Source: Candidatus Thorarchaeota archaeon
GTDB taxonomy: Archaea; Asgardarchaeota; Thorarchaeia; Thorarchaeales; Thorarchaeaceae
Length of the DNA: 32,000 nt
Assembly: GCA_008080745.1 (NCBI GenBank)
Contig: SHMX01000001.1
Span: forward strand, 300,001-332,000
Direction of reading: 5' to 3'
The notes under the pieces are model-generated. The model searched no databases, was not told the origin of the DNA, and worked only from the letters and a program-made list of their open reading frames with translations. Of the stretch, positions 173 to 23,228 are shown in pieces. Each line of letters begins with the position of its first letter. Position 1 is the stretch's first letter. The position numbers were made by a program, and so were the translations under genes.

Positions 173-667
173 TCAGCCACCTCCAACTATTATCTCTGCA
201 CGCATATGTGGACCCCCACTTGAAACTGGCACCCAATCTTCTTCGCCCTTACCACAGGTACCACCTGAGAAGTCCAAGGTTTTACCTACCGCATCGACAC
301 TTTGTAGAATATCTAGTACCTTTCCTGCTAGTGACATACCCCGAACTAACTGTGTTAGTTCGCCATTCTTAATGATATAGCCTTTCAACGCACTTGCTTG
401 TACACCACCTCCAACGACATCCTCCATACCTGATGTGGCCTTGATTACATAGAGACCGTCTTTTGTATCCTCGATTATCTCTTCATTCTTCCAATCTCCG
501 GAGTCAAAGAATGTATTTGTCATCCTCGCAAAGATGCGTCGGTTGTAATCTTGTGCTCTACCATTTCCAGTAGGATTCACACCCATAAGAATCGCTGATT
601 CAAGCGTATGCATGTAGCCTGAAAACACACCATTTTCGATGATGGTTGTACGGGAAGATGGAGTACC
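173..667 (-). pseudogene. tldD: tldD 3' fragment (downstream of the IS607 insertion)
   Basis: Reads GTPSSRTTIIENGVFSGYMH...GNGRAQDY...TCGKG...PVSSGGPH, which are TldD C-terminal motifs. It joins the 5' fragment in frame once the IS is removed. Confidence 0.9.
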
Positions 668-732
668 GTTGATTGAAAGTTGGACAAACTTAGACAGGGT
701 CTAAGCAGTCCGTCCAGCAACGGCACTGGACG
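668..732 (-). ncRNA. Candidate 3' part of TnpB omegaRNA scaffold at the IS right end (5' limit unknown)
   Basis: Two perfect 7-bp hairpins, CGTCCAG/CTGGACG (711-732) and CTTAGAC/GTCTAAG (689-705), overlap the tnpB 3' end and lie just before the element end, where TnpB omegaRNAs are encoded. Confidence 0.5.
680..698 (+). repeat. IS607 right-end subterminal 9-bp motifs (putative TnpA sites)
   Basis: TTGGACAAA (680-688) and TTAGACAGG (690-698). The first is the exact reverse complement of the left-end TTTGTCCAA. Confidence 0.7.
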
Positions 733-2770
733 ATGCATCTTGTACGTGAATGATGTTTCTAGCCGCATTCACATCGGCATGAAAGTGCTCATCACATCCT
801 GAGCAATAAAAGTACTCTCCACCTCGGGTTTCGGTGGTAGCATGAGCATCCTTGACCCGGACCCCCTTCTGTCCACACTGATGGCAGAGCTGGGAGGTAT
901 GCCAGGGGTTGACGGTCCACACAGAATACGGACTATGACCTACCTGCTCCCGCATGTACCTGACCGTGTCGATGATCTTACCCCAGAGGTTGGAACTGAG
1001 GTTGTATGACAGGTCCTTGGACCCACCATGAGCCTGAAAGCTCCGGAGGTCCTCAAAGAAGATCTTTCGAACCCGATGCTCCTCGCATACCCAGACGGTC
1101 TCAGAGGCCACTGTTCGAGCCACCTCTCGGTCAAGACGACGAACCTTTCTCCACAGGGCATCGATGTGTCTATCCTTCTTGAGGATATGCCCAGGATAAA
1201 CCTGTCCTGACCGTTTGCGGTCCCAGTTGTTCTTCTTCCGTTTGGACTCTGAGATCAATGTGTAAGCCTGCTTTCGCAGGAGTTCTCGCTTCTGGATCAA
1301 ACGTGCAGCTCCGATGAGGCGGTCCACGAACTCTCGGCCATCCTTAGTATCTCGTTCTATCGAGATGGCCACAGGTGACCGAAGGCCTCGGTCAACTCCC
1401 GCCTTTGCGTCATAGTCTCGCTCCCCCAGAACCTCTTCAATGAGGGTATCATCGGGAGCCATGAAGGGAATCTGCAGGGTGACCCGTCGCCCATCCACAA
1501 GAATACGAGGAGGAGCACTTCGACGGGACTGACGCAATATATGTACCTGTTTCTCTAGCTCGGTTATCTGTTCCTCGTCCCGGTTCCGCCTGGCCTTCAG
1601 TCGTGCTAGGAGATGAGCTGCGTGCTGAAACTGGATGGTGTTTATGAGCTGGTGGTGCATGTCGTCAAATTTTGCTGCTCGAAATAGCAGTTGGTCTTTT
1701 CGCTGAAGGTCTGCAGTCTTCTCAGCCATCCCTCTATCATCATTCGCAGCTCGGGAGAGCCAGTTGAGAAAGCGAAAGCTCAAGGTTCGCTTTTTATACG
1801 GAGAGGCATCGTGGTCCCTTCCATCGATACCTGGGGGAAGCTTGAGATGAAGGAGAATCTCCTTGGGTCGGTCCTCATCCACGGTGAACCAGTACCCCTG
1901 CCCGATACTGTTCTCGGTTGATGCAGAGAAGTCGAGGGAATAGTTACGAAGCTGGGGGGTGGTGAAGGGATAGCCCTTCTTATCCCAGTGCTGGAGGAGC
2001 TGGAGGACCATACCTGAGACCTGCCCATAGTCCGGGGAACTGGTCCTGAGGAGTGATGCTATCTTCTTTCGTTGTGTGCCTCGCCACTGGAGCTTGATTC
2101 CCATAGTATCTAGTACATGCTGGTCCACGGCATACCGGAGCTGTCTCAGTACCCCCATAGCGTAATGAAATCCGGACCCGTTATCCTTAACGGCATCACA
2201 GGCATCCCGGACCTTTCGGATCAGGGCTCCGGGGATACGTTTTCGCCGCATCAGGCTCAGGGCATCATCGGGGTCCTTTACCAAGACCGTAACCGCTGCT
2301 GTGAAGAGCTGACGTCGGGAGTAGTCCGCCAAGACCATCCGTCCCACCTGCTCCAAGGCATTGCGATGGAGTCGTTCGTAGATCAGGGTCTTGAACTCGT
2401 CATTCTTTTCGTAACAGAGGTCTTTTTCCCTGCGAAGGAGGGTGTAGGCTCTTCCGCGGTATTCAGAGAGAGCCTTACCGATAGTCTCCGCCCGGGTTGG
2501 TGAGGCATAGACTCGGTCCAACATCATATTTACTACAGTGACATACTTCTCGAAGTGTCTCATCAGCCGCTCAAGGTCAATACCCTTGACCTTCTGACCG
2601 GAGCCCTTAGCAACCAAGCGTAATTGATGGGTCTGTGTATCTTGTCTGAAACGGGGGTCGGGTCGGTTGCCCTTGCCGCGCCGCTCCACTACCCGGTTAA
2701 CAGAATTCAGAACGAAGGACTCGACGAGATAGGAAACCTTTGAATTCCTACTAATATATTTGCCAGTCAT
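701..2770 (-). CDS. tnpB: Large TnpB/Cas12f-like RNA-guided endonuclease (~689 aa from MTGKY; ORF open from 2839)
   Basis: RuvC-I GVDRG, RuvC-II FFEDL, zinc ribbon CHQC...CSGC, RuvC-III HADVNAARNI. Located downstream of IS607 tnpA. Confidence 0.88.
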   Translation of the reverse strand: MTGKYISRNSKVSYLVESFVLNSVNRVVERRGKGNRPDPRFRQDTQTHQLRLVAKGSGQKVKGIDLERLMRHFEKYVTVVNMMLDRVYASPTRAETIGKALSEYRGRAYTLLRREKDLCYEKNDEFKTLIYERLHRNALEQVGRMVLADYSRRQLFTAAVTVLVKDPDDALSLMRRKRIPGALIRKVRDACDAVKDNGSGFHYAMGVLRQLRYAVDQHVLDTMGIKLQWRGTQRKKIASLLRTSSPDYGQVSGMVLQLLQHWDKKGYPFTTPQLRNYSLDFSASTENSIGQGYWFTVDEDRPKEILLHLKLPPGIDGRDHDASPYKKRTLSFRFLNWLSRAANDDRGMAEKTADLQRKDQLLFRAAKFDDMHHQLINTIQFQHAAHLLARLKARRNRDEEQITELEKQVHILRQSRRSAPPRILVDGRRVTLQIPFMAPDDTLIEEVLGERDYDAKAGVDRGLRSPVAISIERDTKDGREFVDRLIGAARLIQKRELLRKQAYTLISESKRKKNNWDRKRSGQVYPGHILKKDRHIDALWRKVRRLDREVARTVASETVWVCEEHRVRKIFFEDLRSFQAHGGSKDLSYNLSSNLWGKIIDTVRYMREQVGHSPYSVWTVNPWHTSQLCHQCGQKGVRVKDAHATTETRGGEYFYCSGCDEHFHADVNAARNIIHVQDASSSAVAGRTA

Positions 2771-2873
2771 TGTCTTATGCTCTGTCGTTGATTCACTCTC
2801 AGACTCTTGCCTCCAGGACTGGCACTGGATTTGTTCCATCGTTCTGGTTCTCCACAGTACTGTGCTGACTGTA

Positions 2874-3239
2874 CTATATAATCTCAGTACAAGATATCCG
2901 TCGCATATTCAGCCCTGAGCCTACATCCGTAAAGACCATGGGTCCCGTCTTGAACCGAACTCTACAGGCCCTGGTCAGCAACTCTAACTGCCGGTCCAGG
3001 TCACCATCGGTCTTCTGTCGATGTCCCGAGACCCGGGCGTAGACTGCACATCTCTTTCCTCCGGGTGAATCCAGTAGTTTTCGATGAAAGATTCCCAATA
3101 CTCTGTTGACCTCTGCAAGGGCTATCCGTCGGTGGTTCCCTGCGGTTCTATGACAGGTGAGAAATCCTCGGGCATCCCATCGCCGGATGGTCTTGGTGCA
3201 CACACCCAAGCGCCGTGCTGCCTGTGATACTGTGAACAT
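2874..3239 (-). pseudogene. tnpA: IS607 serine transposase TnpA, C-terminally truncated (121 aa)
   Basis: MerR-type HTH (AARRLGVCTKTIRRWD), catalytic YARVS and DVGSGLN are present. The ORF stops before the DRLxR motif and helix E. Confidence 0.88.
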
Positions 3240-3266
3240 ATTAATACTTCAAAGAATCAGCTGATA

Positions 3267-3285
3267 TATGTCCACCTTTGTCCAA
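3267..3285 (+). repeat. IS607 left-end subterminal direct repeats
   Basis: TATGTCCAC (3267-3275) and TTTGTCCAA (3277-3285), 10-nt spacing, ~22-40 nt inside the left end. Confidence 0.7.
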
Positions 3286-3307
3286 GTTTTCACGGACTGT
3301 TTCCTAC

Positions 3308-4203
3308 CCCTCCGAGTCAAACGGAATTCTTCCTTGAGGTCCCTCAAGAGTTCCATCATCAATCATTGTGACCATATCAGATGCAATCTTCTTTCCAACC
3401 ATTCCTGTAAGAAAAGAACGCTCTTTGACTACTTCGTCAGCCTCACTTGCATGTCCACATACCTCGTGAGCTATCAGCCCTGCGACATCACCATCCATTA
3501 TAACTTTCAGTTTTCCAGAGGGGGGTTTTTCTGCTTCTAGTAATTTTAGGGCGGAATGAGCACAAGTACCAGCAAAATCAACAGGATCTATTTCTCGTAC
3601 AAGCTCATAACCCTTAGAGCCGGACCTAATAGCATAATCATACTGAACTGTAGATTCGTCTCTCACTACTGGTTGAACCATCAAAATGGTTCGTATTTCA
3701 TCCCAGGCGAGGCGTGTTCCCAGGGTATTTACTAGATGATATACACGTTTGCCATCACTATATACACTATTTGTATTTACGACCTTATCGTCTACTTTCT
3801 GGGCCTCGTCTAATTCCATAACAATATCCAGTTTCTCAGATGCGCTCACAGAAATCGGGTCTTCTTTGACCTTTTGCCACACTGTTTTCTCGACTGGAGT
3901 GATTCTTGAGAGATCTATGTTCTTTCAAGAATATTTAGCTCCCGCCTTTGCCATCTTTACTGCGGTTTCAAGCAACTCGTATAACCGCATTTCAGTTACC
4001 TTCCGAGTCATCGACGCTTGGCCCCAACACTCTCCAACAAGAGCACGGGCAACAGTACCAGTAGCAGAGGGCTGGGTAAAACTCCGCAAACGCCCATTTT
4101 GAGCCATCATTCGAGAACTCTTTCGAACCTCGTGACGAATATCAGCAAAAAGAGGTTCCTTTTTTGAAAATTCCTCGATGACTTCTCCCATCATTTCTAA
4201 CAT
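3308..4203 (-). pseudogene. tldD: tldD 5' fragment with in-frame TGA at 3925-3927
   Basis: ORFs 3925-4203 and 3304-3882 share one frame, separated only by TGA (AKYS*KNIDL). The HEVCGH metalloprotease motif and PFDSEG are present. The reconstructed protein is ~462 aa. Confidence 0.9.
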
Positions 4204-8274: not shown

Positions 8275-9927
8275 TTACTCTTCAGCAACAAAGGGCTTGG
8301 AGATGGATTCTTCCTCAACCTTGTCGGGCATGCGACGGTCACGCCACTCTGTCAAGGGGATACTGAACTTCGCCTCTACACGTGGTCTGTGTAGTGTGTT
8401 CATTGCACAGAACGGTATGATTCGTCCGTCAGGAACAGAATAGTTGATATCACAATGCGATACACGCTCAAGATCGAAGTTGTATGGATCCATGAAGTGC
8501 ATCATTCCTACCATGATAACACGCTCCATAAATTTAGACAGAGAGTCATAATCACCGCGATCAAGGAATGCACCGATAAGGTCCTTAATGAGGCCCTTTC
8601 TCTTGATATGACGAACACCAGCAGCTAATTTAGCCTTAGCCCGTTTGCTAGCGGCACGTTTACCATCAGCATAGAGGTTTGCGATTTCCTCAAGGAGTTC
8701 AATGAACTTATCAACGTCAATAATGTTGGTGATTGGTTCGTAAGAGCCATCATCGTTGATATAGAGGAAAGTAGACATACCACAGGCGAAGTGAGAGCTT
8801 AGTTCTAATTGAGGAGTGCCTTTCATTAGACCAAGTGCACGCCCAACAGGCATCATAGCTGGAACAGGATACCATTCCGAGGCCGGGATCTTACCATCAG
8901 TCTGTTCTTCGATGAGCTTGATACAATCGGGGATGGTAATACGCATCTCTTGACGCTTGTCATAGTCGATACGACCAGTGATGCTTACTGGTTGGAAGTT
9001 CACACAACGGATGACATCGGAGTTCTCAACTGCAAATTCAACTATGCCGCCAAGCTGATCATGGTTAACACCACGAACTACTGTAGGAACAAGAACCAAC
9101 GAGTCAAGTCCGGCTTTTCGACAGTTTTCAATGGCATCCATTTTGACTGGAAGAAGATTACTTCCACGAGCTTCGATATAAGGTTCAGGGGTTATGCCAT
9201 CAAATTGCATATAGATTGTGGATAGACCTGCATCTCTGAGTTCTTGGGTGTATTCCAGACTCTTACCAATACGAATAGCATTACTTGCAATCTGAGTATG
9301 TCGGAATCCAAGCTCCTTTGCCCATCGGATATATGTTGGTAGATGTTTACTAACAGTGGGTTCTCCACCAGCGAATTGAATGGCTGGTGCTGGGACAGGA
9401 AGGTTACCTCGTAGATTTTTCAACATCTCAAATACTTCTTCAGGAGTTGGCTCATAGACAGTTCCAGATTCAGCAGCATGAGCAAAACAGATAGGACAAC
9501 GTAGATTGCATCTATTGGTCACATCAAGCAGAGCAAGCGCAGTGTGGGACTTATGCTCGGGGCACTGACCACAGTCTTCAGGGCAGCCTTTTACGGTTTC
9601 GGTTCTAGGATTATCAAGACCGACAGTTTTGTACCACCATGACTGGGCCTTTCTGAACATATCAACATCGCCCCAGTAGATGTCTTTGAACTCGCCATGA
9701 GTTTCACAAGTCTTCTTGAACATGACCTTACCATCTTCTTCATAGAGGGTGGCATCGATGACGGTTACTTTATCATCACTTAATAGACACTCAGGACAGA
9801 TAGACTGAGTATCATAGGGGAGCTTACGTATCTCATGTTTTTCAACATGATAACGGGACAACTCATCCCCACTCTCAGCATGTTTAATGGGTTCTGCTGG
9901 AACAGGATCAACTTTTTCATGTACCAT
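8275..9927 (-). CDS. tes: Tetraether lipid synthase Tes / GDGT-MAS (MJ0619-family radical SAM), ~550 aa
   Basis: N-terminal SICPEC and GCPEDCGQCPEH; radical SAM CNLRCPIC; QFAGGEPT; HFACG; C-terminal HFMDPYNFDLERV..CDINY..PDGRIIPFC. Confidence 0.88.
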   Translation of the reverse strand: MVHEKVDPVPAEPIKHAESGDELSRYHVEKHEIRKLPYDTQSICPECLLSDDKVTVIDATLYEEDGKVMFKKTCETHGEFKDIYWGDVDMFRKAQSWWYKTVGLDNPRTETVKGCPEDCGQCPEHKSHTALALLDVTNRCNLRCPICFAHAAESGTVYEPTPEEVFEMLKNLRGNLPVPAPAIQFAGGEPTVSKHLPTYIRWAKELGFRHTQIASNAIRIGKSLEYTQELRDAGLSTIYMQFDGITPEPYIEARGSNLLPVKMDAIENCRKAGLDSLVLVPTVVRGVNHDQLGGIVEFAVENSDVIRCVNFQPVSITGRIDYDKRQEMRITIPDCIKLIEEQTDGKIPASEWYPVPAMMPVGRALGLMKGTPQLELSSHFACGMSTFLYINDDGSYEPITNIIDVDKFIELLEEIANLYADGKRAASKRAKAKLAAGVRHIKRKGLIKDLIGAFLDRGDYDSLSKFMERVIMVGMMHFMDPYNFDLERVSHCDINYSVPDGRIIPFCAMNTLHRPRVEAKFSIPLTEWRDRRMPDKVEEESISKPFVAEE

Positions 9928-10108
9928 AATATTCGCACTCCATGAGGCGATTAGTACCACCACTAAAGAGGGTGGTATTCTGGTGATTGGTCATCAAAAA
10001 CCGAATATAACCTTTATCCGAAGTTTCAGAGTATGAAAGCTAGTACGAGATGTTTCATGCTAATTGTGTGATGGATTCATTATTATATCAGTCAAAATAT
10101 GTTTTCAT

Positions 10109-23118: not shown

Positions 23119-23228
23119 TGGTAGCCCCGCCAGGACTCGAACCTGGGTCAAGGGGAGATCCTATCGAAGAGCACTGGAAGCTCAACGGTTCCAGAACCCC
23201 TCATGATGGACCGCTACACCACGGGGCT
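23119..23228 (-). tRNA. tRNA-Gln(CUG) with 34-nt intron at 37/38 (23157-23190) and encoded CCA
   Basis: Acceptor stem AGCCCCG/CGGGGCT (A1-U72), anticodon stem AGGGG/CCCCT, T-arm CCAGG-TTCGAGT-CCTGG. Bulge-helix-bulge forms with TTCT pairing AGGA. Mature length 76 nt. Confidence 0.95.

Follow-up and report, generated by a model that had tools for sequence, protein, structure and literature searches.

The question raised by this locus is what kind of protein is made by a TnpB-like gene that encodes 712 amino acids (aa), where about 400 aa are typical of TnpB, and whose N-terminal 470 aa cannot be aligned with TnpB by sequence. The gene (P0001; 701–2839, minus strand; one open frame) lies in a 32,000-nt stretch of a Candidatus Thorarchaeota genome (GCA_008080745.1, contig SHMX01000001.1, positions 300,001 to 332,000), which is referred to here as the window and to which coordinates refer unless another contig or locus is named. 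It is carried by a decayed IS607-type transposon that interrupts a tldD/pmbA-family gene. The results described below suggest that the gene encodes an enlarged TnpB-type DNA endonuclease guided by an omega-RNA, and that its family, as found here, occurs almost solely in metagenome-assembled genomes (MAGs) labelled Thorarchaeota. We put the probability of this reading at roughly 0.7.

The C-terminal part of the protein shares with TnpBs of known structure (ISDra2, 8h1j/8exa; ISFba1, 8iaz) the split RuvC D-E-D active site and the zinc ribbon of PF07282. The catalytic residues are D483 in the RuvC-I motif GVD (codon 1393–1391), E596 in the RuvC-II motif FED (codon 1054–1052), and D689 in the RuvC-III motif HAD (codon 775–773), and the C4 zinc ribbon is formed by the two CxxC pairs C652/C655 and C679/C682 (886–794), all on the minus strand. 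None of the seven residues varies among 25 aligned members, with homologues 50–66% identical to the 712-aa protein, and the Pfam model PF07282 (Cas12f1-like TNB) matches residues 619–696 with 49.8 bits against a cut-off of 26.3. The RuvC-I aspartate is preceded by 482 residues without a family match; in ISDra2 TnpB, it is preceded by about 190. Lengths of 700–727 aa are kept throughout the family, and the 712-aa size is therefore neither an annotation artefact nor a chance read-through. These findings bear out the preliminary description of the locus, which had proposed an oversized TnpB with an intact RuvC triad, a four-cysteine zinc ribbon, and a long N-terminal region, representing an expanded and uncharacterised clade in a probable Asgard host. 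None of the papers in the literature searched describes the 712-aa TnpB family, and no solved structure was close to it in sequence, the best match (E 5e-4) being confined to the zinc ribbon and RuvC-III. As for the host, a relative of the same GTDB family encodes protein P0121 letter for letter, and P0121 is assigned by NCBI to a Candidatus Thorarchaeota MAG, which supports the proposed Asgard host. Among other models, NCBIfam Cas12f2 matched residues 474–696 (1e-17), the IS607_TnpB model (NF038280) scored 23.4 bits against a cut-off of 350, and nothing in Pfam or NCBIfam covered residues 1–475. A search for normal-sized relatives, in which the C-terminal 237 aa were compared with proteins of 130–415 aa, yielded just fragments of the same family.

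The organization of the N-terminal half was approached with an AlphaFold2 model built on the 25-sequence alignment, which has a mean predicted local distance difference test (pLDDT) score of 73; residues 1–89 score below 50, and residues 301–312 and 602–615 are also poor. The model runs from a short strand (41–44) in a conserved YLVESF block through a helical region (89–288), strands (316–356), a long helical hairpin (360–438), and further strands (445–456) into a RuvC fold with two long helices, the zinc ribbon, and the RuvC-III helix. The strands at 41–44, 316–356, and 445–456 alternate with the helical segments in the order wedge (WED)–recognition (REC)–WED, so that, in the model, the protein would share with TnpB the order WED-REC-WED-RuvC. 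Cas12f structures ranked first in a Foldseek search (E 1.9e-10), and the Foldseek and VIA-align matches span residues 34–712. With VIA-align, AsCas12f gave a Z score of 17.0 (360 of 416 residues aligned, model residues 35–706), ISDra2 TnpB 14.1 (345 of 362, residues 34–712), Fanzor2 14.6 (239 aligned, residues 35–706), and Cas12b and Cas12i about 14–15. The closest match in an Atlas structure search was a 509-aa Methanobacteriota TnpB cluster, with a TM score of 0.60 by query and 0.82 by target. Judging from the model, we estimate that the protein holds the whole TnpB/Cas12f core and about 290 residues beyond a 420-aa Cas12f. Of these, the REC region would account for about 140 and the stretch from residue 301 to the C-terminus for about 110, most of them in the 360–438 hairpin; the remainder would be the basic and poorly modelled N-terminal tail. 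The REC insertions that the preliminary description had expected structure prediction to locate appear in the model as a REC region that is helical, doubled in size, and about 200 aa long; the other main addition is the 80-aa helical hairpin between the WED strands.

An RNA structure at the 3′ end of the gene provides a second line of evidence. Aligned over their 3′ ends, 31 full-length copies of the family are conserved as far as ...GTCCAAnnnACAATGAACGG, where conservation ends and the flanks diverge at once; in the window, this terminus is base 666, 35 nt past the stop codon. The right end of the element (666–790, minus strand) overlaps the last 30 or so tnpB codons and carries the predicted omega-RNA scaffold, which consists of stem A (778–775 pairing with 765–762), hairpin B (730–713), hairpin C (711–708 pairing with 685–682, enclosing an inner stem at the stop codon, 703–701), and a tail (681–666) ending ...CAATCAACGG; all three helices and the inner stem covary. 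As with TnpB, the predicted structured RNA overlaps the 3′ end of the gene and stops at the right end of the transposon. Stem A (GCNG/CNGC) arises from pairing between the wobble bases of two alanine codons (HAD..NAA) and pairs in 26 of the 31 copies, with six pair types at these synonymous positions (UA 10, CG 6, GC 4, UG 3, AU 2, and GU 1). The closing pair of hairpin B (CCAG...CUGG) is U-A in 16 copies, C-G in 14, G-C in one, and broken in none, and hairpin C (GGAC...GUCC) has its inner stem across the stop codon. Over the 17 pairs of the right end, 94.5% of the cells are paired and nine pairs show compensatory changes; none of 500 shuffles equalled this, and slid controls reached 24–43%. 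The last 125 nt of the element fold, as a single sequence, with −38.6 kcal/mol (z −3.0). A possible alternative or pseudoknot helix, GUGAAUG/CAUUCAC, is paired in 80% of the cells with many cells broken, and no Rfam family matches the right-end RNA. The tldD coding sequence directly 3′ of the right end (TACTCCATCTTCCCGTACAA..., 646–665, minus strand) is the predicted guide-encoding flank; its position follows from the right-end boundary, and its length of about 20 nt is assumed.

A second hairpin with the motif of hairpin B (CCAG-YGYC..-CUGG) lies near the start of the gene, in tnpB codons 4–10 (2812–2829, minus strand; TCCAGTGCCAGTCCTGGA). Across 23 copies, 96.5% of its cells are paired and 19 cells are compensatory, and none of 500 shuffles matched it in either percent paired or covariation score. 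The stem alternates between CCAG/CUGG, GCGG/CCGC, and CCGG/CCGG, and the peptide encoded there is variable. The hairpin may have a part in autoregulation or processing.

The right-end RNA sequence is also found apart from the gene. The host genome has 16 occurrences of the terminal 20-nt pattern, compared with 0–1 of a reversed control, and ten of these sites, as well as one that a contig end truncates, are parts of a repeat of about 190 nt that is here called the mini-element (for example, contig 4, 186179–186368). Each begins with a left end, GGGTnnCAAACAG...AAAACTTGGACA, that is homologous to the left end in the window, followed by a GCTTATATAGG box, about 100 nt with hairpins B and C, the terminus ...ACAATGAACGG, and unique flank. 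Copies taken from five relatives match this layout and size; searches of the other genomes with the window left-end motif or with inverted right-end copies did not recover left ends. A transcript starting at the position of the TATA box would carry a scaffold of about 100 nt. When a covariance model was made from the last 80 positions, it matched 20 sites in the host genome and 2–48 sites in each of ten relatives from its GTDB family, and none in three genomes of that family without the protein or in any genome outside it. Protein and RNA thus show a similar distribution: of 13 genomes in the GTDB family of the host, the RNA-end model matches 10, the protein is present in 9, and three have neither, and both are absent from the eight genomes outside. 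In one relative (G011), there are 44 right-end RNA matches and tnpB is reduced to a 50-residue remnant; either its mini-elements are orphaned or the assembly has missed the nuclease gene.

The element in the window can be delimited exactly. Its left end (GTAGGAAACAGTCCGTGAAAACTTGGACAAAGGTGGACAT..., 3240–3307, minus strand) adjoins tldD and is homologous to the left ends of the mini-elements, and a GG core dinucleotide at the left junction (3308–3309) has its twin at the right junction (667–666). The junctions read gac tcg gag gg/GTAGGAAAC......CAATCAAC GG/t act cca, where slashes mark the boundaries, and an intact tldD orthologue from a genome of the same genus (L084) has gac tgt gaa ggc aca cct at the same place. 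Deletion of the element and one GG restores the tldD frame E-G-T-P, and the length of the element is 2,642 bp (3307–666, one GG counted). Compared with the empty site, the junctions therefore indicate a GG core without target duplication, as IS607 would have. The G+C content is about 0.53 in the element and about 0.42 in its surroundings. On its two sides lie the N-terminal part of tldD (3310–4203, minus strand; PF01523, PF19290, and PF19289) and the C-terminal part (173–665, minus strand; PF19289, 3.4e-30), the latter 83% identical in nucleotides to the uninterrupted orthologue of the same genus; four further tldD/pmbA-like matches are present in the host genome. Between the left end and tnpB lies an IS607 tnpA remnant of 121 aa (2874–3239, minus strand), which comprises a MerR-type helix-turn-helix (HTH; Pfam MerR, 1.9e-10) and the first 50 residues of the serine-recombinase domain (Resolvase, 8.5e-5) with the catalytic-serine motif YARVSGHRQ, and breaks off after about residue 114. 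The NCBIfam model transpos_IS607 matches it over positions 2–109 of 187 with 73.6 bits (cut-off 110), and residues 1–114 are 72–75% identical to intact TnpAs of 200 aa (L040) and 187 aa (L063). A TTATATA box (2875–2881, minus strand), about 36–42 nt 5′ of the tnpB ATG and overlapping the stop codon of the tnpA remnant, probably serves as a promoter; a TATA-like block is conserved in 24 family upstream regions and also in the mini-elements.

Insertion sites reconstructed for mini- and full elements allow the target to be read. In a table of 38 sites, of which a few rows are mis-parsed, GG is present at the left junction in 35 and at the right junction in all 38, the first flank base (position +1) is T in 33, and position −1 is C in two. 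The target-adjacent motif would thus read non-C, GG, and then T. The right end of the element itself reads C-GG, and a motif that excludes C would lead the nuclease to spare occupied sites.

For other TnpBs, cleavage of the empty donor site is the means by which the element is maintained, and a similar mechanism may operate here. Transcripts of the right end and of the mini-elements would bind the nuclease, with the adjoining flank serving as guide, and the ribonucleoprotein would cut matching DNA beside a target-adjacent motif that includes the GG core. Cutting of the empty donor site after excision would keep the element in the population, and with mini-element RNAs the nuclease may act in trans.

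Whether the copy in the window still works bears on a different explanation, namely that the element is a decaying relic whose nuclease gene is intact merely for want of time to decay. Its TnpA is truncated, and the split tldD has a second lesion, an in-frame stop codon (3925–3927, minus strand; ...GAKYS*KNIDLS...) in a frame that is open over 463 aa in the orthologue, so that tldD is a pseudogene in decay and the insertion probably happened some time ago. Furthermore, only one complete family copy is assembled in the host genome, and in two marine-sediment metagenome runs from which this DNA may have come, no empty-site contig was found; contigs there carry the insertion and none joins across. 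However, all 712 codons are open with every catalytic and zinc-binding residue intact, the promoter box and RNA helices are preserved, and the ratio of nonsynonymous to synonymous substitutions (dN/dS) in the family is about 0.1. By the method of Nei and Gojobori on ten pairs, it is 0.08–0.27 wherever dS is unsaturated, N-terminal and RuvC parts alike; in pairs that include the window copy, it is 0.10–0.13 for the C part, and dS of the N part is saturated. These values indicate that both halves of the family protein are under purifying selection. A dead element is thus quite unlikely, and the 712-aa TnpB is probably active.

The family extends well beyond the window. A word-indexed search returned at least 255 clusters related to the 712-aa protein; among the 120 clusters listed, nearly all are 690–727 aa long, and those with names belong to Candidatus Thorarchaeota, plus one to Promethearchaeota. 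When one genome per species was scanned for the sequence pattern, more than 421 family coding stretches came to light, often several in a genome and many at contig ends. Among 20 sampled relatives, the protein is present in 8 of the 12 from the host's GTDB family and in none of the 8 outside it. The host genome has a second copy, broken across two contigs: the end of contig 16 (about 9200–9938) carries a left end, a tnpA cut short at 147 aa, and the N-terminus of tnpB, and the start of contig 5 (1–589) carries the C-terminus of tnpB and a right end. Its TnpA truncation is independent of that in the window copy, and no intact IS607 TnpA was found in the host assembly, which is 98% complete. The host genome has lost the IS607 recombinase twice and retained the nuclease. 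Since both recognisable tnpA genes are truncated, the nuclease would now serve elements that are unable to move by themselves. At most family loci, a divergent giant open reading frame (ORF) stands upstream of tnpB instead of tnpA. The host genome has one such gene, which encodes 1,711 aa and is divergent from a different TnpB of 608 aa (contig 2, 473075–480281; L103:573–7785), and homologues with 25–47% identity lie upstream of most family members elsewhere. The giant ORF has no match in Pfam, where Cas1 was not found either, and no usable match in the Atlas. The name IS607 TnpB given in the preliminary description thus fits the element of the window copy, but neither the low score with the IS607_TnpB model nor the neighbours of most relatives.

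These observations also invite the view that the host has co-opted the system, with the nuclease and the dispersed mini-elements forming a trans-acting set of guide RNAs that would serve regulation or defence instead of maintaining the transposon. In favour of this, tnpB is intact and constrained although neither tnpA gene is complete, RNA ends exceed tnpB genes about 10- to 40-fold with a TATA box in each mini-element, and most relatives lack TnpA altogether. On the other hand, the guides are whatever flanks an insertion and would match host loci rather than foreign DNA, flanks differ from genome to genome, showing recent mobility, and family copies break assemblies as active repeats do. Moreover, the window holds no CRISPR-like array, and no fixed motif follows the 31 copies. 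We regard co-option as improbable on balance, and the transposon-borne, RNA-guided nuclease remains the preferred reading.

Several points nevertheless weigh against that reading. First, the NCBIfam model guided_TnpB (NF040570) matches residues 476–697 alone (222 residues, 2.7e-20) with 73 bits, below its cut-off of 100. Second, a profile of the N-terminal 470 aa, run against 1.84 billion representative proteins, gave 37 matches, all of them family members or fragments; as this part matches nothing outside the family, the assignment of WED and REC depends on a model with a mean pLDDT of 73 and residues 1–89 below 50. When the N-terminal half was modelled alone, its fold matches among representative PDB structures were weak, mostly coiled-coil look-alikes of the 378–438 hairpin, with Cas12l and Cas12b (Z 6–7) as the sole multi-domain ones. 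Third, the RNA of the mini-elements alone folds no better than shuffles (z +0.9), and the mini-elements could be ordinary non-autonomous transposon derivatives in which the promoter is a leftover. Fourth, the target-adjacent motif is weakly defined, and the truncation of both host tnpA copies means that a role in transposon maintenance may be obsolete here.

The second of these points could also reflect a chimera, in which 450–480 unrelated N-terminal residues became fused to the C-terminal fragment of a TnpB; the lack of Pfam and NCBIfam matches in residues 1–475 and a profile that finds the family alone are what such a fusion would leave. However, the alignments with TnpB and Cas12f run over model residues 34–712 and take in nearly whole target chains (345/362 and 360/416), the strands and helices of the model interleave as WED-REC-WED, and all full-length members show conservation and constraint in the N-terminal part. 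With the modelled WED and REC continuous with the RuvC half, an unrelated fusion, which the preliminary description had named as a possible refutation, is very unlikely.

Compared to known systems, the enlarged nuclease shows a mixture of features. It resembles TnpB in being carried on a transposon with a serine-recombinase tnpA, here a truncated one, but it falls below the curated cut-offs of hidden Markov models for TnpB, has an extra 80-aa hairpin and a doubled REC in its model, and would use a mini-element RNA scaffold that is short, at about 100 nt. Cas12f proteins (AsCas12f, 8dzj/8j3r; Un1Cas12f1, 7c7l; CnCas12f1, 8hr5) are the best structural matches, with Z scores of 15.7–17.0. In contrast to these type V-F effectors, the 712-aa protein is transposon-borne and 290 aa larger, and its sequence likeness to them is limited to the zinc ribbon and RuvC-III. 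Type V (Cas12) systems have an adjacent array of clustered regularly interspaced short palindromic repeats (CRISPR) or cas genes, whereas this gene lies inside a transposon interrupting tldD; the 32-kb window has no tandem repeats, hence no CRISPR array, and no cas genes, Cas1 included.

IS607-type TnpB is the proposed source of Fanzor2, and the enlarged nuclease shares with the Fanzor2 of Acanthamoeba polyphaga mimivirus (9b0l) a TnpB-derived fold and an enlarged size class. The host here is prokaryotic, however, and the Z score of 14.6 is no better than those of many Cas12 and TnpB chains, with Cas12f, ISDra2 TnpB, and Cas12b/i at least as near; no affinity to Fanzor was detected at the level of sequence. 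The specific link to the origins of Fanzor and Cas12 that had been proposed for this gene was therefore not borne out, and no evidence ties the family specifically to the origin of Fanzor or of any Cas12 subtype.

Two groups of Asgard TnpBs, Cas1H-Asgard-1 and -2, are described in Altae-Tran et al. 2023 (PMC10691335) as residing in non-canonical transposons with a Cas1-type neighbour (aCas1), and as being followed downstream by a variable stretch after a conserved T, bounded by a GTTCACTCA-like motif. The family studied here resembles them in the T that is the first flank base at 33 of 38 sites. Compared with that description, it appears to differ in its neighbours, an IS607 TnpA remnant or, in relatives, a giant ORF without a Pfam Cas1 match, and in the lack of a GTTCACTCA-like motif, which was absent within 120 nt downstream of 31 family copies. 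The same paper describes standalone omega-RNA loci and derivatives of OMEGA systems that resemble miniature inverted-repeat transposable elements, which consist of scaffold and ends without effector or transposase and outnumber effector genes. The mini-elements share these properties, but each copy of about 190 nt keeps its left end and a TATA box about 100 nt before the right end, and they accompany an unusually large effector.

Several other arrangements were seen in and around the family. In some deletion derivatives (P0227 and P0232), the TnpA HTH is fused to the zinc-ribbon end of TnpB. At L040:1446–4533 and L063:1984–3273, TnpA is intact, and behind it an unrelated ORF on the minus strand takes the place of at least the first 200 tnpB codons. 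Family copies in L015, L029, L038, L030, and L008 end about 45–150 nt from an opposite-strand tRNA-Lys(CTT) or tRNA-His(GTG) gene (L015:5160–5236; L029 and L038:5224–5300; L030:5298–5371; L008:5270–5343), and the immediate flanks of these copies are alike (CCAGTGGCTTAGC...). Elsewhere in the window, a tRNA match at 23122–23228 (minus strand) extends over 107 nt although the model has 71 positions, as would be expected of an archaeal tRNA with an intron.

TnpB is ancestral to Cas12 and Fanzor, and the growth of these effectors is usually reconstructed from distant comparisons. Here, one close-knit family combines a Cas12-sized protein that is still on its transposon with an exact right end, readable putative guides, a reconstructable target (non-C, GG, and T), and dozens of putative natural guide-RNA genes per genome. 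With this combination, direct tests can be made of the target rule, of what RNA is required, and of what the added domains do, and the family may yield a compact-RNA nuclease for genome editing. We further suggest, tentatively and as a possibility that falls short of being likely, that the family is an intermediate in the replacement of RNA scaffold by protein, in which a TnpB has gained about 290 REC and WED residues, the omega-RNA has shrunk to about 100 nt, and the guides have become independent, promoter-bearing, mobile mini-genes served in trans. If so, the hairpin at the 5′ end of the mRNA could let the nuclease regulate or process its own message, and the mini-elements would represent a dispersed, transposon-built counterpart of the CRISPR array in Asgard archaea.

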